The notes beneath the pieces are model-generated. The model saw only the letters and a list, made by a program, of their open reading frames with translations, was not told the DNA's origin and made no database searches. A DNA stretch of 40,118 nucleotides, from the sequence record PZ379598.1. One strand, written 5' to 3'. Of the stretch, positions 743 to 37,633 are shown one piece after another (positions within the stretch are counted from its first letter, which is position 1; the number at the start of each line of letters is the position of its first letter). This DNA comes from a phage. Made by a program: the position numbers and the translations under genes.

Positions 743-765
743 TCCCTATAGTGATAGTTAAGTCC
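743..765 (-). promoter_or_regulatory. Phage RNAP promoter (phiOR analogue)
   Basis: Plus-strand CCTATAGTGATAGTTAAG equals the minus-strand consensus CTTAACTATCACTATAGGGAAG; it sits downstream of terminase and upstream of gene 19.5. Confidence 0.75.
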
Positions 766-857
766 AAACTCCTTGTAAAACAGTAGGTTAGACTGGTAGT
801 AACTATAGGTTACTAACTGCTTATTAACTCAGTTTTCACCTATAGTTATTCATTCAG

Positions 858-2624
858 CTAGTGGAACGTAACGTATGCCCCTAGTCCAAGCTCGTCGTCC
901 GTATCGTGAGTTACCCGGACCCCATTGTCCCAGAACTCAGTGTGGATGGACTCGAAGCCTTTCCGTGGGTTCTCCATCTGTTCCTCCAGCCACTCCTCAG
1001 TGACTTCACGTTCTCCTTTGTTGGCATCCTTAGCCATAGACTCAACGAAGAACTGTACACCGATAGCCAGCGCATCAAGTCGGTCATCGTGTGCCAAGGC
1101 TCCACGTTCACGAGAGATACGTGTCATCTGGTAGAAGAGAGAGTAGATAGGGTTACGAACACCATCCTTATCAGAGGCCGACTGGTAGTCTTGGACGATA
1201 GCAGCAGCGTTAACGATAAGTCGGTGAGACCCCATGATAGGCTCCAGAACGTCACAGATGCGGAGTTCTTTCTGACCCTTACTCTTCACTTCAGTTACAG
1301 CCGCAGGATGGATACGGGCCGCTACAGGCTTGAATAGCTCAAGGTACATACCATCACCGAAGTTACCCTCAATGACGTATTCGTTGACCTTCCACTTACG
1401 ACCAATCTTAGCCAAGGCTTCCAGCGTAGAGTCTTCATAACCACCACGCATACCACCAACTTCCATAGCGAAGATGTAGCCGTTGAGCTGGTACAGTACC
1501 GCATAACCAGTTTCATCCTTACCACGACCACTAGGGTCAATGACCAGAATCTTCTGGGTGTACGAGCTAAAGGCAGAGCCTACAGTCTGATACGTGTGGT
1601 ACGAGTCACCCATGAGTCCAACGTTAGGAACGTCCTCACGCTTGTTCTGAGGGTTCGGCAACCATTGGTAGACCATTGGGCTGGACGCTGGGTCCAAGTC
1701 GGCTACGATAAGGTCACGGAGCTTCAGAGGGTACTTCTCGGCATCACTCAGGTTCGGGTTAAGCATGAACTGTAGAGCGAAGCCAGCTTTACCGTAGGAC
1801 AGCTCACGTTCCTTCAGGTCCGTATCATCGAAGCGTACTTCATCAGTCGGACGCCAGTAGAAGGACTCAGGGTCCTCTTCCAGCTCTGCCTGAAGCATAG
1901 GAGCCAGACGGTCGCCGTAAGACTGCCAGTCCTTCCTGTCGCGTGGATAACGAGCGGGCCAGATAGTAGTGGTGTACCCACGACCTTCCAGCTCACGGTA
2001 CAGGGTCATCTCGTTCTGAGGAGTACCCAGATAGATGATCGTACCTCCCGGCTTCAGGATAGCGTCGAACTCTTTCACAAGCTCTGATAGACGGTCTCGT
2101 GCAGCCTGAGTCGCTGAGTTGTTCGGAACCTCCACGTCATCGGCAATCAGGATGTCAGCACGACTACCAGTCAACTGACCAGTGATACCAACGGACTTAA
2201 CCGAAGGTGAGTGGTCTGGCTTGGCAGGTCCCACGTCGAAGCTGATAACCGCATCTCGCTGCCCCTGTTTAGGTTTGAGTTCCTGAAGCTGAGGCATGAG
2301 GTCGATGATTCGCTTGATGAAGATGGAGTTCGCATCGGCTCGTTCCTTTGAGGCCGACACAATCATGAACTTCAAGTCTGGGTTATTCCATAGCTTCCAG
2401 ACCACAAAGCCACAGGTCAAAAACGACTTGCCAATACCACGGAACGCCTGAAGGATGAAGCGGCGATTATCCCCAGCAGCCAGCTTCTTACACATATCTA
2501 TCTGGCAGCGGGTTGGAACCGGAAGACTTAGTGCTTTCCAGAGAACGAAGATGAAGAACACGAAGTCGTCCCTCATCCTTTGGACCATTTCTGCCTGTCT
2601 TTCAGCGGGTGTTTTCTTAGACAT
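858..2624 (-). CDS. gp19: Terminase large subunit (T7 gp19-like)
   Basis: 588 aa; near-colinear identity with recalled T7 gp19 ([58 protein letters not shown]). Confidence 0.95.
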
Positions 2625-3054
2625 ATAGTCCCTCCAGCATTAGGTCCCGGACAGCGATAGACTCCTCTAAAGTGGGACGTGTTGTTCGCATATAGGCATT
2701 CCCGCGTTTAACCTGAATCCTATAACCATTCTGGTGACGGGTAACGCACTTCACTCCTGTCTTAGAGTCATAATGGCTACCAGTATTCCAAGTGTTTTCA
2801 GCGGCAGTAACGAGCCGTAAGTTACTTAAGGTATTATTGCTAGGGTTCCTGTAGATGTGGTCTATTTGCATACCATGCGGTATAGGACCATTGGTTAGTT
2901 CCCATATCACACGATGGGCCCGCTTACTGCCTAGACTTCGTGTCTGTACTATCCAATATCCCATCCGACTTAATGTTCCCACAGGCTTTCCAGTCCTAAC
3001 GGAGACCAGACCGGATGGACTAGCCGGGTCCACTTTGTAGTAATCACTTAACAC
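2617..3054 (-). CDS. HNH homing endonuclease
   Basis: 145 aa with an HNH core ([41 protein letters not shown]); overlaps the spanin 3' end and the terminase start. Confidence 0.8.
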
Positions 3055-3496
3055 CTTGGAGCCTCCTTATTGTGTCCTGAAGCGCCTTCTCCTTAAGGTC
3101 TGCCTCCTGAGTTAATCGGATAAGACTTTTAGAAGTTTCTGGGTGTAGTTCGACTCTACCATTAGGGAAGCATCTACTGACATCTGACTCGGTGAGACCT
3201 GAGGTGTTGACTCGGACGCGCAGCCGCTTGTTATCGCGGTTAAGGTCAGCAATAATCCTATCAGTAGAGCCTTCCAGCGCGGACATCTTGTCTTGCCACT
3301 CGGCTGACACTTTGTTGATTTCACCTTGGACAGCAGCCCGTTGATTCTCTCGTGCCTCAAGTTTCGTGATGTACTCATTGTTTACCTTCGCCTCCCACTT
3401 ATTGTCTGCCACCCAGTAGCCAGAACAGAACAGGAGTCCTGCAACCAGCCACGGGATTGCTTTACGTAAAAGTTCGAGCATAGTTGCCCTCCTCAT
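3044..3496 (-). CDS. gp18.5: i-spanin (Rz-like, T7 gp18.5-like)
   Basis: 150 aa; N-terminal membrane anchor then coiled-coil; matches recalled T7 gp18.5 (LRKLIPW..AG.LF, EGSTDRII.DL..DNKRLRVRV, LQDTIR.LQ). Confidence 0.9.
   Translation of the reverse strand: MRRATMLELLRKAIPWLVAGLLFCSGYWVADNKWEAKVNNEYITKLEARENQRAAVQGEINKVSAEWQDKMSALEGSTDRIIADLNRDNKRLRVRVNTSGLTESDVSRCFPNGRVELHPETSKSLIRLTQEADLKEKALQDTIRRLQGVK
3112..3378 (-). CDS. gp18.7: o-spanin (Rz1-like) embedded in the +1 frame of the i-spanin gene
   Basis: Embedded ORF with a hydrophobic stretch followed by a lipobox-like TSGC and a Pro/Ser-rich tail; embedded Rz1 architecture is typical for T7. The true start is probably downstream of the ORF-track start. 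Confidence 0.65.
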   Translation of the reverse strand: MSTSRNLRHERINGLLSKVKSTKCQPSGKTRCPRWKALLIGLLLTLTAITSGCASESTPQVSPSQMSVDASLMVESNYTQKLLKVLSD

Positions 3497-3540
3497 TTCT
3501 CAGAATCCACGTAGCGTCTCCGCCCGTAGTGTGTGTTAAC

Positions 3541-3580
3541 CATAAAGGCCACTACATATAGTAATGACCTTGAGTCTAAC
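3541..3580 (-). promoter_or_regulatory. Putative RNase III processing hairpin (R18.5 position)
   Basis: One of three copies of a conserved element (minus strand ...GACTCAAGGTCATTACTATATGTAGTGGCCTTTATG); resembles the recalled T7 R1.1 hairpin. It sits between small terminase and the spanin gene. Confidence 0.6.
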
Positions 3581-3582
3581 AC

Positions 3583-3846
3583 TTACTGTACACCATACCC
3601 GGTGTCGTTATCCTCAGTAGCTGAGAGCACCTTATCGTACTCCCTGTTCAAAGCCTCCATATCAGCGAGCGTCTTCTCGTCAACAGACACCTTGCTTAGC
3701 ACGAAGTTGTGACGAGCCAGTAGCTTCTCAATGGCGTTGTAAAGCTGAGGTGAACGCTTAGAGTCATCCCGCAGGTCTTGCAGCATGAGTCTAGCACGTT
3801 CAGTATCCAGCATCAAGAGGAACTTCTCTAAGTCCATCTGCGTCAT
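3583..3846 (-). CDS. gp18: Terminase small subunit (T7 gp18-like)
   Basis: 87 aa; matches recalled T7 gp18 (F..MLDT, RSPQLYNAI.KLL.RH.F). Confidence 0.85.
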   Translation of the reverse strand: MTQMDLEKFLLMLDTERARLMLQDLRDDSKRSPQLYNAIEKLLARHNFVLSKVSVDEKTLADMEALNREYDKVLSATEDNDTGYGVQ

Positions 3847-4037
3847 GTTTTACCACCTCCTTTAATCGTTTTGTAGACTAGCACACCAATCTGGACAACG
3901 GTGTACGCGATAGCTGCAACGTAGAACCATTCGTTCAGTGTAAGTCCGAAGAAGAACCGACTGGCACCATCAGCCGCAGCGGTCCCGACGATAGGAGAGG
4001 CTTTAAGGACCTCATTCTTGAAGTCTAACTCAATCAT
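3843..4037 (-). CDS. gp17.5: Holin (T7 gp17.5-like, class II)
   Basis: 64 aa; near-identical core to recalled T7 gp17.5 (KA.PIVGT..AD...R.FFGL.LNEWFYVAAIAYTVVQIG). Confidence 0.9.
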   Translation of the reverse strand: MIELDFKNEVLKASPIVGTAAADGASRFFFGLTLNEWFYVAAIAYTVVQIGVLVYKTIKGGGKT

Positions 4038-4147
4038 AAAACCTCCAGTTTAAAGCGGGTCGTCCGTGACCCAAAGTTGTTACATACGTTGGTTAGCGTG
4101 TAGTTAGTCTCTACCCCCACCAACTTAATGGCAAAATGGTTTGTTTA

Positions 4148-4375
4148 TTACTTCTGTTCAAGAGCAGAAAGTCTGGCTTCGATTCTTTCCAGTTTTCTTC
4201 TCTGATAAGCGGCTTCAGCAAAGAAAATTCCGTCAGGCCGAACACCCCACTCCTCACCCTCTTCGTGAATAACCACCTCGGTGTATACAGGTTCTTCCGT
4301 AGTAGTGACATTACCCTCCTCGTCAGTGTGTTCAACGATTTCATTGTGCGAAAATACCGTACCAGTATTACTCAC
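4148..4375 (-). CDS. Hypothetical acidic protein (75 aa) downstream of the tailspike
   Basis: ORF begins with GTG overlapping the tailspike stop (GTGA overlap), has an acidic N-terminal half and a helical C-terminus (AEAAYQRRKLERIEARLSALEQK). No T7 counterpart between genes 17 and 17.5. Confidence 0.5.
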   Translation of the reverse strand: MSNTGTVFSHNEIVEHTDEEGNVTTTEEPVYTEVVIHEEGEEWGVRPDGIFFAEAAYQRRKLERIEARLSALEQK

Positions 4376-6903
4376 TTAGACATAACAGCTAATGCTTCCT
4401 GCATACGCTTAATAGTACGCCGCATCAACGCAGCCTCTAATATCAGTACTTCCTCGTAACGAATACCGTAGCGGGAACCTGCTGGTGTAATCAGTTTACG
4501 AGAGCCATTGGCATCTTCCTCGTATACATCATCCCAACTGTCGAAGCACAGGAAGCCATAGCTATGTGCATCTATACCGTGACGTTCGAAGGCCTCCTTA
4601 GCTCGCTGAGCGATGATGCCGAAGTGCCATCTAGCTGAGTCTGCACCCTTCTCCTCAATTCGGTCCAAGTACTGAAACTGCACAAAGTCAACTTCAGACC
4701 AAGCATCCAGTAAAGCATCTGAGATATTAAGAGGCTCTGTTTTATCCCTAGCATCTGAGACAACAGTGAATGCTGATTGAGTAAAACCGCCAGACCATGC
4801 TCGACTTGCGGAACCTAATGCGTATGTATTAGTACTATCTGGGGTCATTGCATCAGAACCTAACTGCAAATAACCTGTGCTACTGGTAGGAAGACGCACG
4901 TTGCCGTTGGTGAGGGACACTGTCCGATAAATACCATCAGAAGTAAATAGTCGAACTTGAGAAGATGCACCACCACCTACAGCTAATGACACAGCACCAT
5001 CCCCAAGCATTCTGTACTTATCAGCAGAAGTAAGAACGCCTGAAGGGAGTGACATGGACTTAATCCGCCATTCGAACCTACCTGACATACTACCTATGTA
5101 CTGCCCTAAGGCAGGTGCGTGCACTACGTTACTATTACTAGTGCCGTCAATAGTAGCTGCACCGTCAATAGTACTAACAGAACTGAGAAGGTCGTTTCTC
5201 CTGCCAGGGTGTTTTACCTCTACGAAGTTACGGGTAGAGCCGGATTCGAAAGTAATAACACCTGTAGCACTGTAGCTAGGAAATACAGACGCATAGTTGT
5301 TATTAGCTGTACCTATAAAGCGTGCAATTGTAGCAGTCTGCCCTTGTCCTGAAGAGTTAGTACCATCACATCCTGACATAAGCACATTATTTATGACGTT
5401 ATCAGACCCTTCTACGGTAACGCCATGAGCCTGATTAGCATCAGAAGTTGAGTAATCTACGAGCACGTCTGAGATTAAGTTCGTATTTCCTTTGCCTGCA
5501 ACAACCGCTGCATACTTAGGGTTATTAGCCATCACCCCCTTTATAATGTTATTAGAAGGAGCTATTGGCCCTTCAGTGCCGTTGTAAGTTACATGCTGGC
5601 AATCTGCCCCTATAACATTACTGACTATGTTGTAACTGGCTGTACCTTTCAACTCTACTGCTCCGAACTGAGGGTAGTTCTTAGCAATAACGTTATCTAT
5701 GAGGGAGTTAACTGAGGAGTCAGCAAGTACGCATCCGGCTGCCTTATTAGTAGCATAGCCGGAATAGCCACCTCGAATGCCTTTAATCATAAGTCCATCA
5801 GGTGGCGCATCATTAGGGTATGCGATTAAACTGAAACCAGTACCTTTAACGTTTGAGAAGTTAACGTCACTTACAGTAACATCGCTTCCACCCGCAAGAG
5901 ATACCTGCTGTCCCTGAGTTGTATCAGTCGCCTTATTACTTTCTACCGTAATATTACTTAAGCGACCTGTACGTGGATTGTTAAATACTAAGTAGTTACC
6001 TGTACTGGAACGGTGACTTAGCACGCCACTACCCCTACCGTCTAAGTTACAGTAATTACTATTAATACCAGAACTAGAGAATACACCTTCTGATGCTACG
6101 ACAGCTTTTTGAGAATTTAGTGAAGCAGCTATATTCTCCGTACTATCTGTTACACCATCCCCTTTAGCACCCCAGCCTCGAACATCACCCTCATCACGCC
6201 ATCTTGCCATCTGCAATTCCGGGTAGAGTATTGCCCCTTCCGGGTTTGAAATCTGACTTCTTAAAGCAGCATCACCAACACTAACCCACGCACCTAATCC
6301 AATCCCACCGGAAGTTTCAGGAGTTGAACCAGCAGGAACGTTCTTTGGAAGCGTACCATCCCAGCGGTAATAATCACCATCCTCTTCCCATAGCAGGACC
6401 TCGCTCCATGTTGTAACGTTGTAGCCTTTCTCGAAGGAGCGACGGGTAATATAGCCAATTAGACCAGCTTCCCTGATACTCGCAGCGATTCGGCGTGCTT
6501 CGTCCTCGCTATCCTTAGCGTTGCCAGCAGAGCTACCAGCAGCATCGGCATATTCCTTCGCTAAGTCAACCGTTTGGTCTCGACCTTCTTCTGCAATATG
6601 GATAGCCTGAAGCTCTGAATTGGTCAGGTCACTAGCTGTCAACACTGAGCCATTCCTGAAATCTACCACTAAGTCAGTTCCAGTCTGACGGTGAATACGA
6701 ACTATGTCGAAACCTGATTGGTCAACCAACATCTCAATCATCGTTGGATTAAGGAATCGGTAATCTCGACCAACTTCCAGTACACGGTTCAGGGTAGGGT
6801 TAGAGCTATTCACCAGCGTAACAACAACAAACGTTCTGGCTAGGTAGTCGAACTCAATCCTGTACTGAGTGTTTCCTGAAGGGAATTGTGTAATCGTGGA
6901 CAT
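4372..6903 (-). CDS. gp17: Tail fibre / tailspike: gp17-like N-terminal adaptor, central beta-helix (putative polysaccharide depolymerase), C-terminal intramolecular chaperone (peptidase S74-like)
   Basis: N-terminal ~150 aa match recalled T7 gp17 (EYLAR.FVVVTL, DYRF, LVDF.NGS.L.A.DL). The central region has repetitive N..I.NV..G beta-helix-like segments. The C-terminus has SDARDK (Ser-x4-Lys) and HFGIIAQRAKE resembling S74 chaperone motifs. Confidence 0.85.
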   Translation of the reverse strand: MSTITQFPSGNTQYRIEFDYLARTFVVVTLVNSSNPTLNRVLEVGRDYRFLNPTMIEMLVDQSGFDIVRIHRQTGTDLVVDFRNGSVLTASDLTNSELQAIHIAEEGRDQTVDLAKEYADAAGSSAGNAKDSEDEARRIAASIREAGLIGYITRRSFEKGYNVTTWSEVLLWEEDGDYYRWDGTLPKNVPAGSTPETSGGIGLGAWVSVGDAALRSQISNPEGAILYPELQMARWRDEGDVRGWGAKGDGVTDSTENIAASLNSQKAVVASEGVFSSSGINSNYCNLDGRGSGVLSHRSSTGNYLVFNNPRTGRLSNITVESNKATDTTQGQQVSLAGGSDVTVSDVNFSNVKGTGFSLIAYPNDAPPDGLMIKGIRGGYSGYATNKAAGCVLADSSVNSLIDNVIAKNYPQFGAVELKGTASYNIVSNVIGADCQHVTYNGTEGPIAPSNNIIKGVMANNPKYAAVVAGKGNTNLISDVLVDYSTSDANQAHGVTVEGSDNVINNVLMSGCDGTNSSGQGQTATIARFIGTANNNYASVFPSYSATGVITFESGSTRNFVEVKHPGRRNDLLSSVSTIDGAATIDGTSNSNVVHAPALGQYIGSMSGRFEWRIKSMSLPSGVLTSADKYRMLGDGAVSLAVGGGASSQVRLFTSDGIYRTVSLTNGNVRLPTSSTGYLQLGSDAMTPDSTNTYALGSASRAWSGGFTQSAFTVVSDARDKTEPLNISDALLDAWSEVDFVQFQYLDRIEEKGADSARWHFGIIAQRAKEAFERHGIDAHSYGFLCFDSWDDVYEEDANGSRKLITPAGSRYGIRYEEVLILEAALMRRTIKRMQEALAVMSK

Positions 6904-6953
6904 TATGCCTCCTTTGTGATTTAAATGGAGACCTATGGTAGCGCCTCCAGTTT

Positions 6954-6971
6954 CCTATAGTGATAGTTTAG
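6954..6971 (-). promoter_or_regulatory. Phage RNAP promoter (phi17 analogue)
   Basis: Plus-strand CCTATAGTGATAGTTTAG; upstream of the tail fibre gene. Confidence 0.8.
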
Positions 6972-9900
6972 TCCTTGATGTGGATGCCTTGCTCCTCAAA
7001 CGTTCCAAGCAGCAGCTTCTGGGTAATGGGGTCGTTCGGAACCAGTTCACGTAACGTATTATACATCCCGGTCATGTAGTCACGCTCGTTGACACGAGTA
7101 TCAGCCTTGAGGTAGCCAGCCAAGTTGTAAGCCGAAGCGCCAACGTTAGCAGCATATCCGAAAGCTGGAACCTGCTCCAAGAAGTTACCAACAACATTCA
7201 TCACAGGGTCACTTGTAGCTGCACCATACGCGATGGCACGCTCAGGCTTCTCTGTAGGAGAACGAGGTAGGATAGACGAACGGAGCATCTTAGTGTCCTC
7301 ATATCCAGCGATGCCTCCCAGAATGTTAGCTACCCCAAGTGGGCCACCAAGATGTGAACTACGGGACAGGGCCGCATAGCCAATCATCGTTGGGTCCAGA
7401 GCTTGCTTAAGGTAGTCACGGTCTCGACCATCCTGCATAGCATAAGCCTTGACATGCGCCTGAGCCATGTAGTAGATACCAGCCAGACCCATAGACATCA
7501 CGGTCGACAGTGCAGCGTCAATCGCTCTGTTGTTCTTCGTGGCGTTATAGAAGGTTCGCATGGTTCTCCCATTGATAGACTTGATGACGAAGTTCTTAAA
7601 CTGAAGTACAGTCTTAGCGAGAGGACCATAAGCCTTGGCGTCCATGTTTGACAGCTTATGAGGCCGGAGTAACGTCTCGTCAGCGATGGTGTCACCCATA
7701 CGCCACAGGTCCATAGCCCTTGGGTCCTGACTGAACGCCTTCTTATCCTTGATGGTGTACTTCCCGTCTGGCCCACGAGTCACTGACTCACGGATTAGGG
7801 ACTTAATTCCACTCCACTGCTCGTCAGATATACCAGCGGTCTTCAGCCAGCGGTCATCGAACTTACGCTTACTACCAGTCAGGCTATGCTCCACGATGTC
7901 AGACAGGAAGCCTTGACGTCCAGCATCTAACAGGTAGTTGGTCGTACCGTTGAGGACTTTAGTGAACGGAGAGCGTACTGCAAGTTCACCAGTGTAATAC
8001 TTAGCAGTCCCCAGAGCTGTAGCTGTACCACGACTAAGGTCACTGTAAGATCGCAGACGGTCGATAACATCCTGTTTAGACGGACGGATTGAGTCGTCCA
8101 ATTCTTTACCGAAGATAACATTATGCAGGTCCTTAATCTCCGAGGCCCCAACCTTCTTGTTACGGAAGGCTAGGTCACGGAAAATTGGGACTCCATGAAG
8201 CATTGCACGAACGTTACCACGAGCCAGCATACCACCAATCTCCGTTAAGTTCTGAACACCCATGTAGGCATTCTTAGCGAAGAACGATAGGTCTGTCATT
8301 GTGCGCATCACTGTAGCGAAGGCTGCATCATCAGCACCATCACGTCGAGCACGACCAGTGAGAATCTTCAAGGTGTCACGTAAGGTAGATACCTCACCTT
8401 TCAACTTACCGTCATCCCCAGCCTTGTTCATCATGGTCTCAACCAAGTCCTTCATGTCCTTCGTGGTCTTTCCTGTACCAGCCATGATAGCGATGTCCCC
8501 ATTAATTCTACGGTTGTACGCCGGAACAATCTTGTCCATGTCCCACTCACGCAGATTGTTGACACTGAACGTCTGACCGTTAGGTAGGACGATTGACATA
8601 TCGCTATCGAACAGGTTACGAGCCTCAAGGAAGCTGTTGTTCTCCAGACCCACCAGACCATTGATGTTCTCTTCCATTACGGATGAACGCTCGAACTGCT
8701 CGGTGTGAGAGATACCATAAGCCTTATCGTTGGCGTACTTATCGACCGCAGCCGCAAGTCCTTCTGGAGTCAACGTAGGGTCAGCCTCTAAGAGTGCCTC
8801 GTCCACACGTTTCTTGACCTCAGGTCGAGACGCATAGCTGGTCAACCATGACTTCTTGATGGCCTCCTGTAGTGCCTCTGGACTTCCAAGCTCCTTGATG
8901 TACAGCTCCTTCATCTGTTTGCTATACACATGCGGGACGTAGGTTCCCTTGAAGTGGCTACCCGGAAAGATAGACTGAGCGTCTGGACGACCAAACATCG
9001 CTGGGTTCTCCATCATCTCACGCTTGGCGTCGAACTGGTTCTTCAGTAGGTCATAGACTTTCATTTCTCCCGGAGTCAGTTCAGCCTTCAGGTTTCCGCT
9101 ACCGTCTTCGATAGCCATAGACACACGCTGGTAGATGTCCTGACGGAATGCGCCAGAGTCTCGCCAGAATGCAGTCTGGAAGTACGGGTCCTTTAGTGCC
9201 TCAGTAACCGCATCGTCGATGTCGTTGTAGAACCGATGGTCCACAGAACGAAGTCTCTCGAACACGTCTGACGCAGTTGTCCCGATTTTACCTGAGGCCC
9301 CAGACTGCATACCAGTAGGTGAACGCACTAAGTCAGCAGCTACTCCACGAATCTCAGGGTTCTCAGACCGAAGCAGCTTCAGGCCAATCTCGGTAAGTCC
9401 ACCAAGGTTCACACCAGCAGCGGCACGTTCCGGCTCAATCACTTCGTCAAAGACTTGACGTGTCTTAGGGTTCAGAGGGTTCTCACCAATCAGGATTGAA
9501 CCGTCTTCCAGTCGTACACTTCCCGGCTCATTCGGAACGTCAGCGAACTTAACGCCTTGATGACTAAAGGTCTGCTCACCTTCCTGAATAGGTAGACGAG
9601 ATAGGTCCTGACCATCAACGTTACGAGCAGTCTCACGAGCTTCCAGACGTGTAGCTGGACCAGCAAACTCATTAGTGTTGCGGCCTAAGGCTCTACCTAG
9701 TCCATCAGCGATAGCAGTCATACCGCCACCGAAGAGAGCACCACCAAGGATAGCTTCAGCCACATGAGCATCACCACCAGCCACTGAGGTACGTGCCATC
9801 TCAGACACACCAGCCAGTGCTCCAGATTGAGCCGCCACTGTGAACATCTTGTTTACCAGCTTACCGCCCTTACCAACCTGTCCAGCAATAGGAACGTAGG

Positions 9901-11286: not shown

Positions 11287-11288
11287 GT

Positions 11289-14625: not shown

Positions 14626-14657
14626 AAAGTCTCCTTATAACCTTAAGGGCCTATAGT

Positions 14658-14677
14658 CCCTATAGTGATAGTTAAGG
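14658..14677 (-). promoter_or_regulatory. Phage RNAP promoter (phi13 analogue) embedded in a 12-bp inverted repeat
   Basis: Plus-strand CCCTATAGTGATAGTTAAGG, flanked by AAGGGCCTATAG (14645-14656) and its exact reverse complement CTATAGGCCCTT (14683-14694). Confidence 0.8.
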
Positions 14678-17977: not shown

Positions 17978-18016
17978 CAAAAAACCCCTCAAGCACCCGA
18001 AGGCACCCAAGGGGTT
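17978..18016 (-). terminator. Tphi-like intrinsic terminator (for phage RNAP and host)
   Basis: Minus strand AACCCCTTGGGTGCC-TTCG-GGTGCTTGAGGGGTT followed by TTTTTG: about 15-bp stem with G-U pairs, UUCG tetraloop and U-tract; very similar to recalled T7 Tphi and in the same position after gene 10. Confidence 0.85.
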
Positions 18017-18020
18017 TCAA

Positions 18021-19339
18021 TTAGTTTGTGAAAGATACGTTGAAGGAACGCACAGGCGTACCGTCATACCCAACAATCACCAGACCTTCCACGCCAGAGG
18101 TGGCCTTGAAGTAGAGACTGTTGGTTCTACGGGAGTAGCTAACACCATCAGGCGTAGTCACCTCAAGCAGCGACCAATCGGTCACATCTGAAAGCTCAGG
18201 GAAGTCAACCTTCAGGCTGGTTCCCACCGTAGAACTATACGTCTCTAAGGTAGGACCCTCTGTAGAGAGGGCCTTAAAGGTCGTTAACCCGCTTTCGCCG
18301 CTGTGAAAACCAGTGCGCCTGCTGCTTCTGGACGCAGACCACCGTGACCCATAGCGTACTTACCAACAATCAGGTCGCCCTGAGCATCGACGTCACGGTC
18401 ACGTTCCAGCGCCAAGTCACGCAGCTTAACAGTACCTACAGCAGAACGGTGAGAGAACAGGCCCACAACGTTGTCCAGAGCAACTTTAACATCACCAGTA
18501 GCAGTAGCAGTAGCTGGGAAGGCGTGCTTCTGACCAGTCGCAATAGTGATACCATCGGCACCACGAGTTTCCCCAGCACCACCCTGAGTCAAGTGTGGAA
18601 CTTCAACAACCACGAAGCCCATTACGTTACGGATGTTACCAGTCTCTGGGTCAATCAGCGCAGCATAGTTAGCAGCGTTCGGCATCAGAGCCGCGAGGAT
18701 TGCAGAGTAGTTGTCCGGCGTGGTGTAGAAGTAACGGTCGCCAGCAGGAACGTAGTTGGATGTCAGCTTCGCACGAGCAATGGTCAGTTGACCGATGATT
18801 GCTTCACCCAGCTTAGCCGGAGTGTTCAGGTCTGCTTTAGTACCAACTTCCAGCACAGACGCTTTGCCAAGACCAGCGATGTTTTCATCAGATGCAGCCG
18901 GTAGGTTACACAGAATAGCCATCTCAGCCAGTACCGCACCATCGGCAGCGATAGCCAGAGCTTCGCCCAACTGGTTGGAGTACTCGCCAGCCACGTCATA
19001 GTGGTTCATCGCGTCTTCAATGTCGAAAATCATCACATCGGCAGTCAGCAGACCATCAATGGTAATCACTTTCTCGGTATGTTTGATACCTTTACGCTTA
19101 TCGGACAGTCGCTCACCCGGAGCCAGATACACACCAGAGGTGCGACCCATGACCGGGAACTGAGCAGACTTACCGTTCTGAATGGTACGGACAATATGCT
19201 TGTCAGCAGTTACAGAGCGGCGAGTGAATGCTGTCAGGACTTCGCCAGCAAAGACCTTCAGGAACAACGCCAGAGCGTCGGAACCAGATTTGCCTTTACC
19301 TTGGTCTGTACCAACTTTCTGACCCGGAACGTTTGCCAT
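18021..19339 (-). CDS. gp10B: Minor capsid protein 10B produced by -1 programmed frameshift
   Basis: The 10A frame contains G GTT TTC (plus strand 18305-18311) 8 codons before its stop, the same heptamer I recall for the T7 gene 10 shift site. The -1 frame is open from there to 18021, adding about 95 aa and joining the 68-aa track ORF 18021..18227. Confidence 0.7.
18284..19339 (-). CDS. gp10A: Major capsid protein (T7 gp10A-like)
   Basis: 351 aa; strong identity with recalled T7 gp10A (LALFLKVF.GEVLTAF, KSAQFPV.GRT, HTEKVITIDGLLTADV, NAANYAALIDPE.G.IRNVMGF, RSAVGTVKLRDLALER, KYAMGHGGLRPEAAGA). Confidence 0.95.
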   Translation of the reverse strand: MANVPGQKVGTDQGKGKSGSDALALFLKVFAGEVLTAFTRRSVTADKHIVRTIQNGKSAQFPVMGRTSGVYLAPGERLSDKRKGIKHTEKVITIDGLLTADVMIFDIEDAMNHYDVAGEYSNQLGEALAIAADGAVLAEMAILCNLPAASDENIAGLGKASVLEVGTKADLNTPAKLGEAIIGQLTIARAKLTSNYVPAGDRYFYTTPDNYSAILAALMPNAANYAALIDPETGNIRNVMGFVVVEVPHLTQGGAGETRGADGITIATGQKHAFPATATATGDVKVALDNVVGLFSHRSAVGTVKLRDLALERDRDVDAQGDLIVGKYAMGHGGLRPEAAGALVFTAAKAG

Positions 19340-19445
19340 ATGATAATTCTCCTATTCAATTGAAAGATAAAGTTTATTACTTACTGTATGCCCAATCCGT
19401 ATGGACTGAAGTAATAGGGAAACCTTGAGTCTTTCTCTTGGTCTC

Positions 19446-19463
19446 CCTATAGTGATAGTTTAG
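19446..19463 (-). promoter_or_regulatory. Phage RNAP promoter (phi10 analogue, strong class)
   Basis: Plus-strand CCTATAGTGATAGTTTAG; minus strand reads CACTATAGGGAGACC, and the leader begins with a GGAGACC...GGTTTCC stem-loop like the T7 gene 10 leader. Confidence 0.85.
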
Positions 19464-19465
19464 TC

Positions 19466-20386: not shown

Positions 20387-20433
20387 CTGCCTCGTCTAGT
20401 TGACTCACCTAGAGTTGGACTTACGGTGTTGTT

Positions 20434-20452
20434 CCTATAGTGATAGTTTAGG
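20434..20452 (-). promoter_or_regulatory. Phage RNAP promoter (phi9 analogue)
   Basis: Plus-strand CCTATAGTGATAGTTTAGG, overlapping the portal gene 3' end. Confidence 0.8.
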
Positions 20453-23189: not shown

Positions 23190-23252
23190 CTTGAATCTCC
23201 TTTAAGTTAAGACTAAAGTCTATCTTATAGTAATATCTTAGGTCCTAAAGTC

Positions 23253-23270
23253 CCTATAGTGATAGTTTAG
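23253..23270 (-). promoter_or_regulatory. Phage RNAP promoter (phi6.5 analogue), followed by a degenerate second copy at about 23225-23242
   Basis: Plus-strand CCTATAGTGATAGTTTAG; 30 bp further along the minus strand lies CTTATAGTAATATCTTAGG, matching 13 of 18 consensus positions. Confidence 0.8.
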
Positions 23271-23323
23271 TGTTTCACCTATGGATGACTGTCGGATTGA
23301 TAGGATATGACTATCTGTTAGAC

Positions 23324-24470: not shown

Positions 24471-24760
24471 TGCTTGACCTCGAATCGCAGGTTAGATACT
24501 CCGAACTGGTCATAACCAAAGTCGTCTACCAGCTCCTCCTTGATGGTCTTCTTGAGGGCAATTTCAAGGGCAGACTCAGGGCCTGACTCGATTGCGGTTT
24601 TGACCAGAGCCAACTGAAGACCATCCAGCTTCTCACCCTCAGCGTAGGCTTTAGTCATCTCAGCCAGTTGGCGACACATGGTATCTTCTTCCTTTGAGTT
24701 AACAACCATCTTCAGATCAAAACTCACACGAATACGTTTAGTAATAGCCATTAGTGACAC
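24467..24760 (-). CDS. gp5.5: T7 gp5.5-like protein (in T7, binds host H-NS)
   Basis: 97 aa; position and the N-terminal MA.TK...VSFD pattern match my recollection of gp5.5, with moderate certainty. Confidence 0.6.
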   Translation of the reverse strand: MSLMAITKRIRVSFDLKMVVNSKEEDTMCRQLAEMTKAYAEGEKLDGLQLALVKTAIESGPESALEIALKKTIKEELVDDFGYDQFGVSNLRFEVKQ

Positions 24761-25176
24761 TCCTTCTTAACAAGTTTGCGCTCACGGTTCGTCTTAATGA
24801 CGTGTTCGCGTTTTGTAATACACTGTAGATGCTCTATGTTGCAGCACCCACGGTTCAAGCACAAATGGTCTATTTCGTAGCCATTTGGTATAGGTCCGCG
24901 CTTCTGCTCCCACACCCATCGGTGGAACATGAAGGCGAACTTGTTGCCCTTCCTGTAGCTTCCCATGGAGTACCGGAAGTACCCATCTTGGTTCCTCTTG
25001 TGGGACACGCAGACGATACATCCGGTAGGCATGGTGTGGAAGCGTATGGTCTGGGTTCGAGGGTCAATGACACTCTTTCCACGTTGGTCCAATCTTACCC
25101 TCCGTATCAAGTTCACACTTGAAGTTATAGAAGCGTCCGACCTCGCGCATCGCCTCTTGAGCAATACGGACGACAT
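24751..25176 (-). CDS. HNH homing endonuclease overlapping the DNA polymerase 3' end
   Basis: 141 aa with an HNH core (CIVCVSHKRNQDGYFRY...FHRWVWEQKRGPIPNGYEIDHLCLNRGCCNIEHL); AGGAGA upstream of the ATG at 25176. The first ~113 nt overlap the polymerase C-terminal codons in another frame. Confidence 0.75.
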   Translation of the reverse strand: MSSVLLKRRCARSDASITSSVNLIRRVRLDQRGKSVIDPRTQTIRFHTMPTGCIVCVSHKRNQDGYFRYSMGSYRKGNKFAFMFHRWVWEQKRGPIPNGYEIDHLCLNRGCCNIEHLQCITKREHVIKTNRERKLVKKECH

Positions 25177-27499: not shown

Positions 27500-27514
27500 T
27501 CAGGGCATTGACAT

Positions 27515-29218
<1,704 letters not shown>

Positions 29219-29268
29219 TCACTCCTTAATCACAAATGCGAACAGAGGGACAGGACTCACGGTCCCAT

Positions 29269-29288
29269 CCCTAAGGTGATAGTTTAGG
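29269..29288 (-). promoter_or_regulatory. Variant phage promoter upstream of the primase-helicase gene
   Basis: Plus-strand CCCTAAGGTGATAGTTTAGG (two mismatches to the consensus in the TATAG box), preceded by a GGGAC...GTCCC hairpin at about 29248-29267. Confidence 0.55.
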
Positions 29289-29499
29289 CTTTGAAGAACT
29301 GAGACAACTGGTCGGCTTTGGTGTCAGCCTGACGCGCCTTCATGCCAGCTTCCAGTGACGCGATGGTCAGCTTGTCAGCCAGAGCAGCAGCATCAGCCGC
29401 ACCATCGGCAGTCTTCTCTGCTACCTTTCGTTCCATAACCTCAGCACGACGATAACCACGCACCACCAGACGACCAAGAAATTCGATAAGTTTAATCAT
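29284..29499 (-). CDS. Hypothetical helical protein (71 aa)
   Basis: ORF between lysozyme and primase; Ala/Lys/Glu-rich with predicted amphipathic helices and C-terminal QLSQFFKA. Confidence 0.55.
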   Translation of the reverse strand: MIKLIEFLGRLVVRGYRRAEVMERKVAEKTADGAADAAALADKLTIASLEAGMKARQADTKADQLSQFFKA

Positions 29500-29522
29500 T
29501 GAGTGTTCTCCTTTAGAGTTTA

Positions 29523-31612: not shown

Positions 31613-31654
31613 CGGTGTAAATCTCCTAATTTAAAGTTACTAACTGGACGTCTG

Positions 31655-31673
31655 TCCTACAGTGATAGTTTAG
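31655..31673 (-). promoter_or_regulatory. Phage RNAP promoter (variant, upstream of the SSB gene)
   Basis: Plus-strand CCTACAGTGATAGTTTAGG (one mismatch in the TATAG box); overlaps the gp2 stop codon. Confidence 0.65.
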
Positions 31674-31828
31674 GTCTCAGGACGAATCCGTCCGACCATA
31701 AACCCAGCGTCCTCATACTCTTGGGACTTCAGGGTAGCCTCTTCAAGAGACTTTGCGTACACCGGAACCTCGAAGGACTGGGTACGTCCCTCAAGTTCCA
31801 CGATGTATTTCTTCTCTACGTCAGTCAT
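31670..31828 (-). CDS. gp2: Host RNA polymerase inhibitor (T7 gp2-like)
   Basis: Hand-translated 52-aa [55 protein letters not shown], resembling recalled T7 gp2 (SFEVP.YA..L.EA......Y..AGF.V.R.RP); AAGGAG 8 nt upstream. Coordinates +/-2 nt. Confidence 0.65.
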
Positions 31829-31906
31829 AGACCACGCTCCTTCCATAAGTTGTAGAGCTGAAGGTAATCGACGTTACCTGTCTCCTCAAATTTACGCTCG
31901 CACCAC

Positions 31907-32350: not shown

Positions 32351-32603
32351 TGATCACCTCCTTCACGAACTCAATAAACAGACGAACGCGAGGCCACTTG
32401 GTGTATACCACAGGTACGTCGGTCTCACGCTTCTGGCGAGCCTCTTCAGCTTTGCCGTGAGTAATCAGAGCATAGACTGTAGGTGACAGCTTAACGGCCT
32501 TCCCGAAGTATCCCAGCTTCTCGTTGCGCTTAATGCAAGCGAACGGGTTGTTAGACAGGTGGAAGGTATCGGTATAACGGTTGAACATTAAGTTCTTAGA
32601 CAT
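32343..32603 (-). CDS. Hypothetical protein, gene 1.6-position
   Basis: 86-aa ORF immediately downstream of a phage promoter; positional analogue of T7 gene 1.6, similarity not verified. Confidence 0.6.
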   Translation of the reverse strand: MSKNLMFNRYTDTFHLSNNPFACIKRNEKLGYFGKAVKLSPTVYALITHGKAEEARQKRETDVPVVYTKWPRVRLFIEFVKEVING

Positions 32604-32631
32604 AGAGTCTCCTTTTGTTGTTGATGGTTGT

Positions 32632-32651
32632 CCTATAGTGATAGCTTAGGG
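32632..32651 (-). promoter_or_regulatory. Phage RNAP promoter (first promoter after the early terminator)
   Basis: Plus-strand CCTATAGTGATAGCTTAGGG. Confidence 0.8.
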
Positions 32652-32679
32652 TCTAACTGGTGGCCCAGACGATAGCTTG

Positions 32680-32726
32680 CTAGCACAAAGCAAAGAAACC
32701 CAGCAGTCCGCGAAGACCACTGGGTT
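32680..32726 (-). terminator. Early (TE-like) intrinsic terminator after the ligase gene
   Basis: Minus strand CCCAGTGGTC-TTCG-CGGACTGCTGGG followed by TTTCTTTGCTTTG: GC-rich stem, UUCG tetraloop, U-rich tail, directly after the ligase stop as T7 TE follows gene 1.3. Confidence 0.75.
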
Positions 32727-32735
32727 GACATTTAG

Positions 32736-33782: not shown

Positions 33783-34033
33783 TATTTCCAGCTCCTATAA
33801 GCGTTAAGTTGCTGCAAGCACCATTGCTCACAGTTAAAGATTTCGTGTTCGGTAAACTCGCGGGAGACCAGAAGCCTTCCACCGTCTGCTTCAATGATTC
33901 TGACCAATACCATGCGGGAGTACGGCGAGTCATCCATTAGGACCTCAAGTCCTGCCTCGCTCATCCAGCGGTGGGTCCGCCCTAACGATGACCACTGGCT
34001 CGGGGATGCGTCGAATAACCAACGTTTACTCAT
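33782..34033 (-). CDS. gp1.2: T7 gp1.2-like protein (in T7, inhibitor of host dGTPase)
   Basis: 83 aa; C-terminal half resembles recalled T7 gp1.2 (RI.E..G.L...........E..FN.C..WL....Y..W). Confidence 0.7.
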   Translation of the reverse strand: MSKRWLFDASPSQWSSLGRTHRWMSEAGLEVLMDDSPYSRMVLVRIIEADGGRLLVSREFTEHEIFNCEQWCLQQLNAYRSWK

Positions 34034-34036
34034 GGC

Positions 34037-34216
34037 TTACACTCCTACGAAATACTTCTCTTGGTTAACCAGAGAGTCTTTACCTTCAGCGTTTCGGAAA
34101 GCGCCTTTGATACCACCACCACGCTTGGTCTTGTTCAGTTTGCGGCCCTTCGGGATGTAACCTTCAGTCTGCTGACGTTCACGGATGCGCTCGAAGTTGA
34201 TAGTGTTCTGATACAT
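34037..34216 (-). CDS. gp1.1: T7 gp1.1-like small basic protein (59 aa)
   Basis: Hand-translated ORF MYQNTINFERIRERQQTEGYIPKGRKLNKTKRGGGIKGAF... containing KGRKLNKTKR, identical to the motif in recalled T7 gp1.1; just below the 60-aa track cutoff. Confidence 0.7.
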   Translation of the reverse strand: MYQNTINFERIRERQQTEGYIPKGRKLNKTKRGGGIKGAFRNAEGKDSLVNQEKYFVGV

Positions 34217-34249
34217 ACGGTTAAATCTCCAGTAGTGTTTATTTAGGGT

Positions 34250-34293
34250 TAATCATGAAGGCCACGACTTTGAGTCATGACCTTGAGTCTAAT
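34250..34293 (-). promoter_or_regulatory. Putative RNase III processing hairpin (R1.1 position)
   Basis: Minus strand GACTCAAGGTCATGACTCAAAGTCGTGGCCTTCATGATT; third copy of the conserved element, in the leader between the phi1.1-like promoter and gene 1.1. Confidence 0.6.
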
Positions 34294-34313
34294 CCTATAG
34301 TGATAGTTTAGGG
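34294..34313 (-). promoter_or_regulatory. Phage RNAP promoter (phi1.1 analogue)
   Basis: Plus-strand CCTATAGTGATAGTTTAGGG. Confidence 0.8.
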
Positions 34314-34333
34314 TTAACCTCTTCTGCGTTGGA

Positions 34334-34603
34334 TTAAAGTGAATACTGCGAGTGCTCCCAGCCACATGGCCAGTAACTGTATGTCTGTCGTTTGGCCTGC
34401 TCCAGCTTGGACACTGCGTCCTTCAGGTACTTCTCGTGGCTGGACTCGACCAGATATACAAGAGTCTTGAACGGGATGTTAAGCTGCTTGGACATCTCGG
34501 TAGGGATGACCGTGGTCTTCACCAGACCCTTGCCGTTGTGTTCTGTTACGGTCACGATTTGAGTCCCACCATTAACGCCAGTATGCTTGTGTGCAAATTT
34601 CAT
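34334..34603 (-). CDS. Hypothetical protein (89 aa)
   Basis: ORF with AAGGAGAG 4 nt upstream of the ATG; lies between RNAP and the phi1.1 promoter, where T7 has no gene. Confidence 0.65.
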   Translation of the reverse strand: MKFAHKHTGVNGGTQIVTVTEHNGKGLVKTTVIPTEMSKQLNIPFKTLVYLVESSHEKYLKDAVSKLEQAKRQTYSYWPCGWEHSQYSL

Positions 34604-34613
34604 AACTCTCTCC

Positions 34614-34844
34614 TTATCTAATTAGAGGGAATGACGGATACTGAATGCGCTCGTCTTCCATCCACGCGTTAAGAACTTCATCAATCGAAGCTATAAGGTT
34701 GTACTCGTTAGGTTGAATCCACCCAGTCACACCCGACTGTAATCTGTCTCTGAGAATGATTAAATCCTTATAAGTCAGCTCTACATGGCAACGTCCCGAC
34801 CCATCGTTGAATACCCTGTTGTGTGCTACAAGTTTCATTGACAT
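34614..34844 (-). CDS. Hypothetical protein (76 aa)
   Basis: ORF with AGGAGGAG upstream, 15 nt after the RNAP stop; no recognisable motif. Confidence 0.65.
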   Translation of the reverse strand: MSMKLVAHNRVFNDGSGRCHVELTYKDLIILRDRLQSGVTGWIQPNEYNLIASIDEVLNAWMEDERIQYPSFPLIR

Positions 34845-34859
34845 ATACTCCTCCTGTTG

Positions 34860-37541
34860 TTAAGCGAATGCAAAGTCTGAAGACAAGATGTCTTCGATAT
34901 TCAGTTTACCTTTCTTCGGAAGCTCAGGCAACTTGTCTCTCTGGCTCTCGTGAAGCTGGTATTCAAACTGCTCGTAGAAGTCAAGCAGCACATCGTTGTC
35001 GCGGTATGTCTCGACCATCGTCTCACGGACTCCACGGAACAGATACTCAGCGTCAGCCGGGATGGTCCCGAAGCTATCGTGAATCACTGCGAATGACATC
35101 ACGCCATATTTGCGGTGCGTGTGGACTACAGTCTTGCGGAGGTGGCTACCATCTTGTGAGTGGACGAAGTTCGGGCTAATGCCTGACTCCTGCTTGTGCT
35201 TGTCCAGCTCTTTCTTCGTGCCTTTGTTGACGGTAGGCTGAAGGTTGAATGACCCTAAGAACATCAGGTTCAGACGAGTGGTGTCCTTCTTGCGGTATTC
35301 CTGCCAGACAGGGAAACCATCAGGTGTGACCCAGTGTACCGGAAGACAAGGCTTCAGGATTTCTCCAGTCTTCTTGTCCTTCACTTCAGCAGCAAGCAGC
35401 TTGGCAGCACCCTGAAGCCATTTCATCGCGTCAACCGCAGCAACTACGGTCACACTCACAGCTTCCCAAATCATCTTAGCCATGAAGCGAGATGCTTGGC
35501 TTGGTTCAGTGAACATAGCGCCAGACCCTGAGTCAATCGCTGGCATCACGATGTCCTCGTAAACTTGGTCTGCGAAGCCGTACTCTTTCGACCCGTAGGC
35601 CAGAGTCATGACCGAACGCTTAGTGACCTTTCGTGACATACCGTAGGTCAGCCACTGACGGGCAAGCTCTCGTGTCCCCAGCTTGAGACGCTCGGTAATC
35701 TCACCAGTTTTCTTGTCCTCGTGAGTTACCATCTCGTTGTCCGTACCGTTAACCAGTAGGACTTTAAGCTCCTCCTCAATGCGGTCAGACACGATGCGGT
35801 AGATGTCTTGGACCTTACCGGATGGCGTCAGGTTTACTGCATGTCCACCGATGTGGTCGCGAAGCATAGCGCTGAAGTGCTGAATCCCAGAGCAGGACCC
35901 ATCGAACGCTATCGGCAGCGAGCAGGAGTAAGACAAGCCGTGGTGCATTACGCCAGCATACTCGAAGCAGAACGCTAGGAAGCAGAACGGAGAGTCTAAC
36001 TTGCCCCACCACTCAATGCTATCCATCGGTGCCTTGGCAGCAGCCATGATGTTGTCGTGGTTATCTTCCACCCACTTGATACGCTCCTCGAAGGTGACTT
36101 TATCGACACCCGCGCAGTTTGCACCGTGGACCTTCAGCCATTTGAAACCATCAGCACCAATAGGCTTACCGACTGCCAGAGTCAGAAGACCCTTTTGCAT
36201 GTCGTTACCCTGAGGGTTGAACATCGGCACAGCGTAGACGCGACCGCGCCAGTCCATGTTATACGGGAACCAGATGGCCTTGAACTGAGAGAACTTGTTC
36301 GCTTGGTTGACGATAAAGCTCAGTGACAATCTTCGTGACTGTCTGGCCTTCTCGCGGCGATAGATACCAGCAGCAGCCTTCTTCCATGCCTTGAGTTCTT
36401 CTTCAGTCTCACCCGCATAGTCCTCAGGCTTCAGCGGTTCCATCTGAGGGATGTCATCAATAGGCGTGTTGTTCAGCTTCTCGACCATGTTCACCACTTC
36501 CAGAACCTTCTTGTTCACTTTCCAAGGTGTATTCTGAATGATGTTCACAGCGTCATAGACTTCAGGCATATACACGTCTTCGTAGCGTGCTACCGCAGAC
36601 TTAGACCCTAAGCGAATCAGTGGTAATGGTCTGCGTCCTTTGGCCCAGTACCCACCGCCTACGACACCAGTCCACGGCTTAGGTGGAACGACGCAAGGCT
36701 GGTAGACTGGAGCTATACCCGCAAGGCTGAATCCTCGTTGTGCCATCTTCTTGACCCAGAAGTCTGACAGGTGGACCATCTCAACGTCAGCCGCTGCATT
36801 GCCAGCACCGTAACGCTTAAGCTCGACCAGTTGTGTGGACTGGATGACAATCTCCAGCATCTTGATTCCAACGTGGACAGCCTCGGTCGGACTCCAAGTC
36901 CCCCACGCATCTTCCAGTTGGCCTTGCTCCAGCATGGATGCCTCGACCGCTTGCATGTAGGCTTTCTTGTAGGACGCCCCGGCCCGCTTATTCAGGTTAT
37001 CAGCTATCGCCTTCTTGAAGTGCTCTTTCTCCTTGTCACGGATGCGACCGAAGCGGATTTCGTCCTCAAGTGTGCGACCTATCGCTGAGGCCATCGGTGT
37101 AATCGGTATCCCTTCAGGCTTGACCAGCTTGGAGAGTATGACCTTCAGTATGATAACCGCAGCAGACTCGCAGGAGATGCGCAAAGAGCGGACCTTTACG
37201 GCCTTCTCTTCAGTGCTCAACATGGTGAACGCTACGCTCGGACGAGAGGTTGACAGCTTCCCGTCTGGACCTTCATGCCACTCCTTGACGGCTTGCGCAA
37301 TCTTAGGGACCAGAGTCTGCATCAAAGGCTTGGCGACCTGATTGTCTGCCAGTTCCCCTCGCTCAGTCTGTCTCTCAAGGTTCTTGATGAAACGTCGCTC
37401 GCCTTCAGTGTATGCCTCGTGCTCAAGCTGAAGCTGTTTGACTGCAAGGTCTTGCCCGTAGTGGTCAGCCAGTAGGTTAAACGGCTCAATGGCGTTCGAC
37501 ACATCAGAGAAGTCGTGCTTGTCAATAGAGATGACGCTCAT
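34860..37541 (-). CDS. gp1: Single-subunit DNA-directed RNA polymerase (T7 gp1-like)
   Basis: 893 aa; colinear with recalled T7 RNAP from the N-terminus (DFSD...PFN.LADHYG, LEHE.Y..GE.RF) through the C-terminal FAFA. Confidence 0.97.
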   Translation of the reverse strand: MSVISIDKHDFSDVSNAIEPFNLLADHYGQDLAVKQLQLEHEAYTEGERRFIKNLERQTERGELADNQVAKPLMQTLVPKIAQAVKEWHEGPDGKLSTSRPSVAFTMLSTEEKAVKVRSLRISCESAAVIILKVILSKLVKPEGIPITPMASAIGRTLEDEIRFGRIRDKEKEHFKKAIADNLNKRAGASYKKAYMQAVEASMLEQGQLEDAWGTWSPTEAVHVGIKMLEIVIQSTQLVELKRYGAGNAAADVEMVHLSDFWVKKMAQRGFSLAGIAPVYQPCVVPPKPWTGVVGGGYWAKGRRPLPLIRLGSKSAVARYEDVYMPEVYDAVNIIQNTPWKVNKKVLEVVNMVEKLNNTPIDDIPQMEPLKPEDYAGETEEELKAWKKAAAGIYRREKARQSRRLSLSFIVNQANKFSQFKAIWFPYNMDWRGRVYAVPMFNPQGNDMQKGLLTLAVGKPIGADGFKWLKVHGANCAGVDKVTFEERIKWVEDNHDNIMAAAKAPMDSIEWWGKLDSPFCFLAFCFEYAGVMHHGLSYSCSLPIAFDGSCSGIQHFSAMLRDHIGGHAVNLTPSGKVQDIYRIVSDRIEEELKVLLVNGTDNEMVTHEDKKTGEITERLKLGTRELARQWLTYGMSRKVTKRSVMTLAYGSKEYGFADQVYEDIVMPAIDSGSGAMFTEPSQASRFMAKMIWEAVSVTVVAAVDAMKWLQGAAKLLAAEVKDKKTGEILKPCLPVHWVTPDGFPVWQEYRKKDTTRLNLMFLGSFNLQPTVNKGTKKELDKHKQESGISPNFVHSQDGSHLRKTVVHTHRKYGVMSFAVIHDSFGTIPADAEYLFRGVRETMVETYRDNDVLLDFYEQFEYQLHESQRDKLPELPKKGKLNIEDILSSDFAFA

Positions 37542-37614
37542 ACTTAAAGTCCTTGTTATTAGTCTTTCACTTAAAGTCTCTTTGGTCTTTCACTTGGAGT
37601 CTTAGACCTTGAGT

Positions 37615-37633
37615 CCTATAGTGATAGTTAAGT
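37615..37633 (-). promoter_or_regulatory. Phage RNAP promoter directly upstream of the RNAP gene
   Basis: Plus-strand CCTATAGTGATAGTTAAGTC, about 75 nt upstream of the RNAP start codon; the leader contains two copies of AGTCTTTCACTT. Confidence 0.7.

Follow-up and report, generated by a model that had tools for sequence, protein, structure and literature searches.

K1F-like phages encode an RNA polymerase (RNAP) whose promoters belong to a specificity class known from GenBank annotations since about 2005-2008; synthetic biology has used this class since 2012, and its biochemical characterisation dates from 2025. Here we describe the promoters and the polymerase gene of a phage genome of 40,118 nucleotides (PZ379598.1; this whole stretch is hereafter called the window, and all positions refer to it). 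The window harbours eleven copies of a promoter sequence on its minus strand, together with a gene for a single-subunit RNAP. We hold it as nearly certain that the eleven sites are the complete promoter set of the phage's own T7-type RNAP, and that the specificity class of this polymerase is one already described, annotated and exploited.

Different sources describe the closest relatives of this system. Takatsuki et al. (2025) purified the RNAP of phage Ro45lw, a member of Kayfunavirus, defined its minimal promoter as 5'-ACTTAACTATCACTATAGGGA and mapped the start of transcription to G (PMC12272871); the assignment of G to +1 is experimental for the Ro45lw enzyme only. A genome note from 2026 on Sparklingdew, another Kayfunavirus, prints the promoter consensus as CTWAACTATCACTATAGG (PMC13298934). 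Temme et al. (2012) grouped phage RNAPs by their specificity loop and reported the promoter binding region as identical within each loop subfamily. They equipped T7 RNAP with the K1F loop, replaced positions -12 to -7 of the T7 promoter by the K1F consensus, and described the resulting T7(K1F)/PK1F pair as orthogonal to the T7, T3 and N4-subfamily pairs (PMC3458549). A later paper noted residual non-cognate activity in this set. Data on K1F-type promoters were absent from two other publications, PMC4837284 and PMC4925675.

When up to three mismatches are allowed, CTAAACTATCACTATAGG has eleven matches in the window, all on the minus strand, compared with 0.03 expected from 100 dinucleotide-preserving shuffles, and thus the repeats that the earlier note had pointed out are real. 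This is in agreement with the pattern of T7-group promoters, a sequence of ~23 base pairs (bp) repeated 10-20 times per ~40 kb genome on the coding strand only. The direction of the promoter coincides with the direction of the genes at all eleven sites. The earlier note had all sites sharing one 18-mer, which is recognisable at the eleven positions but exact at only five (6954, 19446, 20434, 23253 and 34294). Five other sites have a single mismatch to CTAAACTATCACTATAGG, namely A to T at -14 (745, 14659 and 37615), A to G at -12 (32632) and A to G at -3 (31656), and the remaining site at 29270, with CACCTTAGG, has two. Eight of the start coordinates given in that note were right, and three (14658, 29269 and 31655) had to be moved by one base to 14659, 29270 and 31656.

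Taking each site from -17 to +6, with +1 as the first G after TATA, the consensus of the eleven sites reads MCTWAACTATCACTATAGGRA. No variation was found among them at -16, -15, -13, -11 to -5, -2, -1, +1 and +2. The recognition bases CTATCAC at -11 to -5 are present in all sites, and -12 is A in ten out of eleven. In the initiation half, CACTATAG(G), the bases CAC at -7 to -5, TA at -2 to -1 and GG at +1/+2 are common to the whole set, while -4/-3 vary in two sites. The small-sample-corrected information content over -17 to +6 is 31.9 bits for the eleven sites; for T7, with its 17 annotated promoters, it is 33.8 bits. The position weight matrix that the earlier note had suggested building from the eleven sites separates them clearly from the rest of the window: members score 30.8-37.3 bits (25.0-36.0 in leave-one-out scoring), and the best non-member on both strands reaches 15.3 bits (+1 at 23225), more than 15 bits below the weakest member. 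No further, weaker promoters were detected with the 23-bp matrix on both strands, where the next scores after the members are 15.3 and then 9.1 bits (+1 at 712). Since the weakest member scores 30.8 bits and the next sequence 15.3 bits, the set of eleven sites is complete and sharply bounded.

The specificity of these promoters lies in the recognition half. As had been observed from the letters alone, the initiation half CACTATAGG is T7-like, and the recognition half (ACTAT at -12 to -8, compared with CGACT in T7) is unlike that of T7, T3, SP6 and K11, from which it differs at 6-8 of 19 bases. On the matrix of the window, the consensus sequences of these four phages score between -3 and 12 bits, compared with 31-37 for the real sites; the T7 set was taken from its annotated record, and T3, SP6 and K11 were represented by their consensus strings. 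Nonetheless, the bases ACTATC at -12 to -7 match K1F, EcoDS1, Ro45lw and the Sparklingdew consensus.

In the genome of K1F (NC_007456 / DQ111067) all eleven sites recur, ordered as in the window and preceding the same genes. Nine out of the eleven are identical between the two phages over the 23 bp from -17 to +6, and the other two show one or two base differences, none of them within the recognition core, at -17 of the gene 4 promoter and at +3 to +6 of phiOR. The off-consensus variants are also common to both (T at -14, G at -12, G at -3 and CACCTTAGG). In EcoDS1 (EU734172), eleven annotated 23-bp "promoter" features coincide with its eleven matches, including the site before gene 1, and one additional look-alike with three mismatches is located near the right end. 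Promoters are annotated at the orthologous sites in the record of Ro45lw (MK301532) too; the labels used at these places in EcoDS1 and Ro45lw are phi, phi1.6, phi2.5, phi6.5, phi9, phi13, phi17 and phiOR. The 21-mer ACTTAACTATCACTATAGGGA is present verbatim at phiOR of the window, from -17 to +4.

The predicted reader of the eleven promoters is encoded by gene 1 (34860..37541, minus strand), a single-subunit RNAP of 893 amino acids. It is 100% identical to the RNAP of vB_EcoP-U8, 99.4% identical to that of K1F, 95% to that of Ro45lw and 64% to that of T7. Forty-seven phage records contain an RNAP at least 99% identical to it, and 127 records one of 95-99% identity. The equivalents of the T7 catalytic residues D537, K631 and D812 are conserved, likewise those of Y639 and H784. 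The specificity loop is encoded at 35202..35297 (minus strand), where residues 749-780 of the window enzyme correspond to T7 739-770 and read YRKKDTTRLNLMFLGSFNLQPTVNKGTKKELD, identical to K1F. Over T7 positions 744-761 the loop reads QTRLNLMFLGQFRLQPTI in T7, and TTRLNLMFLGSFNLQPTV in both the window and K1F. Positions 748, 756 and 758 of T7 RNAP are specificity determinants (PMC11880802), and they are N/N/Q in the window compared with N/R/Q in T7. The loop of the window therefore differs from that of T7 by R756N and also by Q754S, and N748, Q758 and R746 are kept. Between the T7 promoter and that of the window, T at -8 and C at -7 are kept and C at -9 changes to A.

Five substitutions (residues 113, 117, 330, 348 and 374) distinguish the RNAP of the window from that of K1F. 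An altered specificity resulting from these substitutions was considered and rejected, because none of them is located in the specificity loop. Residues 113 and 117 belong to an insertion of 11 residues beside the AT-rich recognition loop, and the bases at -17 to -13 are equal in the window and K1F. The RNAP of Ro45lw differs from that of the window by 48 amino acids, two of them in the specificity-loop stretch (window M760L and T775S).

Following the T7 RNAP-promoter model, the polymerase would bind duplex DNA from -17 to -5, where its N-terminal AT-rich recognition loop would read -17 to -13 and its specificity loop about -12 to -7, from the major groove. TATA at -4 to -1 would then melt, and the RNA would start at the first G of TATAGG. 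The change of specificity relative to T7 at -12 to -8 would go together with the K1F-type loop, in which the residue corresponding to T7 R756, the reader of the -9 pair, is N. The sites divide the genome as in T7. Weaker, off-consensus, class II-like promoters, comprising the site before gene 1 and those at the phi1.1, phi1.6, phi2.5 and phi3.8 positions, would serve the early and DNA-metabolism genes. Consensus promoters would serve the structural genes (6.5, 9, 10, 13 and 17) and phiOR, with a Tphi-like terminator after gene 10.

Some points weigh against this explanation. The promoter function assigned to the sites of the window would follow from their near-identity to characterised relatives. 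The proposed contacts between residues and bases are carried over from the crystal structure of T7 RNAP with its promoter, and not from a K1F structure, and are thus to be taken as putative. Moreover, N748 is kept although -11/-10 differ (CT compared with GA in T7), hence a reading of one residue for one base is incomplete.

The earlier note proposed that the promoter represents a specificity not yet described, and with it a new orthogonal RNAP/promoter pair. The recognition half does differ from that of the four textbook phages, whose consensus sequences score far below the sites, but the proposal is very improbable in view of the relatives. The comparison with published promoter sets, which that note had itself proposed as a check, yielded the same consensus in K1F, EcoDS1, Ro45lw, Sparklingdew and T7(K1F)/PK1F. 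A new orthogonal pair is not supported, since earlier work on a known phage RNAP has characterised this consensus, the very outcome that the note had named as refuting the proposal. K1F shares both the consensus and the loop, the promoters are annotated in EcoDS1 and Ro45lw, and both an orthogonal pair and a purified RNAP whose minimal promoter is defined have been published. The class is also widespread: RNAPs at least 95% identical to that of the window are present in 174 phage records, and the 15-mer AACTATCACTATAGG was found in at least 120 stretches of IMG/VR. Among the matches listed, many are located on contigs of ~40 kb, and the bases upstream of AACTATCACTATAGG are mostly MCTW, as in the window.

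The repeats could also be primarily something other than promoters, for example a selfish repeat, or sites for replication, packaging or recombination that are scattered over the genome. In T7, phiOL, phiOR and phi1.1A/B also serve in replication and concatemer processing, and the rightmost site of the window is located in the non-coding right end, beside a palindromic promoter-like sequence. Nevertheless, we give this possibility hardly any weight. All eleven sites have the same orientation as the genes and are located 30-110 nucleotides before start codons and at places orthologous to those in T7, and they carry the initiation core CACTATAGG, with variation at -4/-3 in two of them. In addition, an identical sequence supports specific initiation by the purified RNAP that is 95% identical to that of the window. 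Placement, direction, the cognate enzyme and the annotated relatives all argue for the sites being promoters of the encoded phage RNAP, as had been proposed.

Every site is closely followed by a gene or block of genes for which the K1F or T7 ortholog is preceded by a promoter. The sites had been described as intergenic and as matching a T7 promoter in every case. The former does not apply to four of them, in which the gene upstream ends within the promoter, with TAA at -15 to -13 as its stop codon: 31670-31672 (gene 2), 29284-29286 (gene 3.7), 20448-20450 (portal gene 8) and 6968-6970 (gene 16), all on the minus strand. The latter applies to ten sites, and not to the eleventh, which precedes the RNAP gene.

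This eleventh promoter (37611..37633, +1 at 37616, minus strand) reads ACTTAACTATCACTATAGGACTC and lies 75 nucleotides upstream of the start of the RNAP gene at 37541, where T7 has no phage promoter. It is identical to the K1F site 2475 and is conserved in K1F and EcoDS1, with the EcoDS1 ortholog annotated as promoter, while the Ro45lw ortholog reads CACTAAAGG, with A at -2, instead of CACTATAGG. Activity of this promoter would allow the polymerase to transcribe the gene that encodes it, and it is conceivable, albeit rather unlikely, that such positive feedback alters the early-to-middle switch and the transcription-coupled entry of the genome compared with T7. Within a known system, this promoter amounts to a minor variation in regulation, and not to a new kind of element. 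No functional study of a phage promoter before gene 1 was found in the accessible literature.

The other promoters of the early and DNA-metabolism half are located, on the minus strand, as follows. The promoter at the position of T7 phi1.1A/B, downstream of gene 1/1.1, occupies 34290..34312 (+1 at 34295) with the sequence CCTAAACTATCACTATAGGATTA and is identical to the K1F site 5553. The promoter phi1.6 (T7 counterpart phi1.5/1.6), which follows the ligase gene (1.3) and precedes gene 1.6, occupies 32628..32650 (+1 at 32633), reads CCTAAGCTATCACTATAGGACAA and is identical to the K1F site 7184; its ortholog is annotated as phi1.6 in EcoDS1 and Ro45lw. Before gene 2.5, phi2.5 (31652..31674, +1 at 31657) reads CCTAAACTATCACTGTAGGACAG, with G at -3, a variant also found in K1F, EcoDS1 and Ro45lw. 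Gene 4, for the primase-helicase, has its promoter where T7 has phi3.8 (29266..29288, +1 at 29271); this promoter reads CCTAAACTATCACCTTAGGGATG and is the most divergent of the eleven (30.8 bits, 25.0 in leave-one-out scoring); its CACCTTAGG variant is also present in K1F and EcoDS1. The sites with G at -12, G at -3 and CACCTTAGG all belong to this half of the genome, similar to the class II promoters of T7.

Among the promoters of the structural genes, also on the minus strand, phi6.5 precedes gene 6.5 (23249..23271, +1 at 23254; ACTAAACTATCACTATAGGGACT) and is identical to the K1F site 17178. The promoters phi9 before gene 9 (20430..20452, +1 at 20435; CCTAAACTATCACTATAGGAACA) and phi10 before the major capsid gene 10 (19442..19464, +1 at 19447; ACTAAACTATCACTATAGGGAGA) follow, and the T7 class III start GGGAGA is found only at phi10 among the eleven sites. 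Further along are phi13 before gene 13 (14655..14677, +1 at 14660; CCTTAACTATCACTATAGGGACT) and phi17 before the tail spike gene (6950..6972, +1 at 6955; ACTAAACTATCACTATAGGAAAC). The last promoter, phiOR (741..763, +1 at 746; ACTTAACTATCACTATAGGGAAG), is located downstream of the terminase gene 19, and its bases from -17 to +4 are the minimal Ro45lw promoter (PMC12272871).

Two of these sites are accompanied by look-alike sequences. A degenerate copy, CCTAAGATATTACTATAAGATAG (15.3 bits), is present at about 23220-23242 on the minus strand, 29 nucleotides downstream of phi6.5. Another look-alike is the palindromic pair CTTATAGTATTACTATAGT / ACTATAGTAATACTATAAG at 707-745 on both strands, ~34 nucleotides downstream of phiOR. 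These sequences may represent duplicates that have decayed, or may act as a signal for pausing or processing.

A Tphi-like terminator for the phage RNAP is predicted between genes 10 and 11 (17982..18022, minus strand; AACCCCTTGGGTGCCTTCGGGTGCTTGAGGGGTTTTTTGCT), with a hairpin followed by a T-run, and the record of EcoDS1 has a terminator annotated at the orthologous place. From the stop codon of gene 10 to this terminator, ~260 nucleotides of open sequence are present, which fits a 10B extension produced by frameshifting, of the kind annotated in EcoDS1. At the genome left end (window 38,000-40,118), motif search and weight matrix detected no phage promoter of the phiOL type. A sigma-70 scan of the same end gave 3 matches compared with 4.0 expected in shuffles, and since this is no more than in the shuffles, nothing is claimed on host promoters.

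The first and last 151 bases of the window (1-151 and 39968-40118) are perfect direct terminal repeats, and being identical they indicate that the window comprises a linear phage genome in full, presented as the reverse complement of the orientation customary for T7. A megablast search with a 25 kb query revealed ~100 phage records with at least 80% coverage, the best of them 93-96.5% identical, and among the matches listed almost all are Kayfunavirus. Many Kayfunavirus records cover 85-91% of the 25 kb query at 94-96% identity, which places the window within this genus. The proteins of K1F are collinear with the minus strand of the window from gene 0.3 to gene 19, mostly with 90-100% amino-acid identity. 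As judged from its sequence, the window genome is that of an ordinary Kayfunavirus (K1F-like coliphage).

Other features of the genome differ from K1F or recall T7. The tail spike (4372-6903, minus strand, 843 amino acids) has only its first 263 residues (93.5%) in common with the endosialidase of K1F (1064 amino acids), and Pfam domains Phage_T7_tail, Tail_spike_N and a C-terminal Peptidase_S74 chaperone were found in it. Since the receptor-binding part is unlike that of K1F, the host capsule specificity may differ. The product encoded at 24751-25176 (minus strand) is 47% identical to that of a K1F HNH gene, which in K1F sits inside the split (joined) DNA polymerase gene; unlike the split gene of K1F, the DNA polymerase reading frame of the window looks uninterrupted. 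A direct repeat of 45 nucleotides, 84% identical, is present at 3535-3579, between genes 18 and 18.5, and at 34248-34292, just downstream of the promoter at the phi1.1 position. These places are those of the T7 RNase III sites R18.5 and R1.1, and the repeats are probably RNase III processing hairpins.

The practical value of these results is limited to a clean genome annotation, with eleven promoters, the positions of the strength variants, the RNAP loop and the Tphi terminator. They also indicate that a reading of the letters only can recover the promoter set of a phage and notice a specificity that differs from that of the textbook enzymes.

Similar to the window, T7 possesses 23-bp promoters (17 sites, TAATACGACTCACTATAGGGAGA), and the core CACTATAGG at -7 to +2 is common to both. 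The layout with promoters at 1.1, 1.6, 2.5, 3.8, 6.5, 9, 10, 13, 17 and OR, and with Tphi after gene 10, is found in both genomes. The window has eleven promoters compared with 17 in T7; it is without phiOL, phi1.3, phi4c, phi4.3 and phi4.7, and has an additional one before gene 1. The recognition bases differ, with ACTAT compared with CGACT at -12 to -8 and MCTWA compared with TAATA at -17 to -13. An embedded TAA stop is located at -17 to -15 in T7 and at -15 to -13 in the window, so that the overlap is kept despite a register shift of two bases.

The T7(K1F)/PK1F pair shares both elements of recognition with the window. Its loop is equivalent to T7 Q744-I761, which reads TTRLNLMFLGSFNLQPTV in K1F and in the window, and its promoter carries the K1F consensus at -12 to -7, which is ACTATC by the K1F and window sites compared here. 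The PK1F string reportedly reads TAATAACTATCACTATAGGGAGA. The pair is a chimera with the T7 backbone and T7 promoter flanks, whereas the enzyme of the window is the native one.

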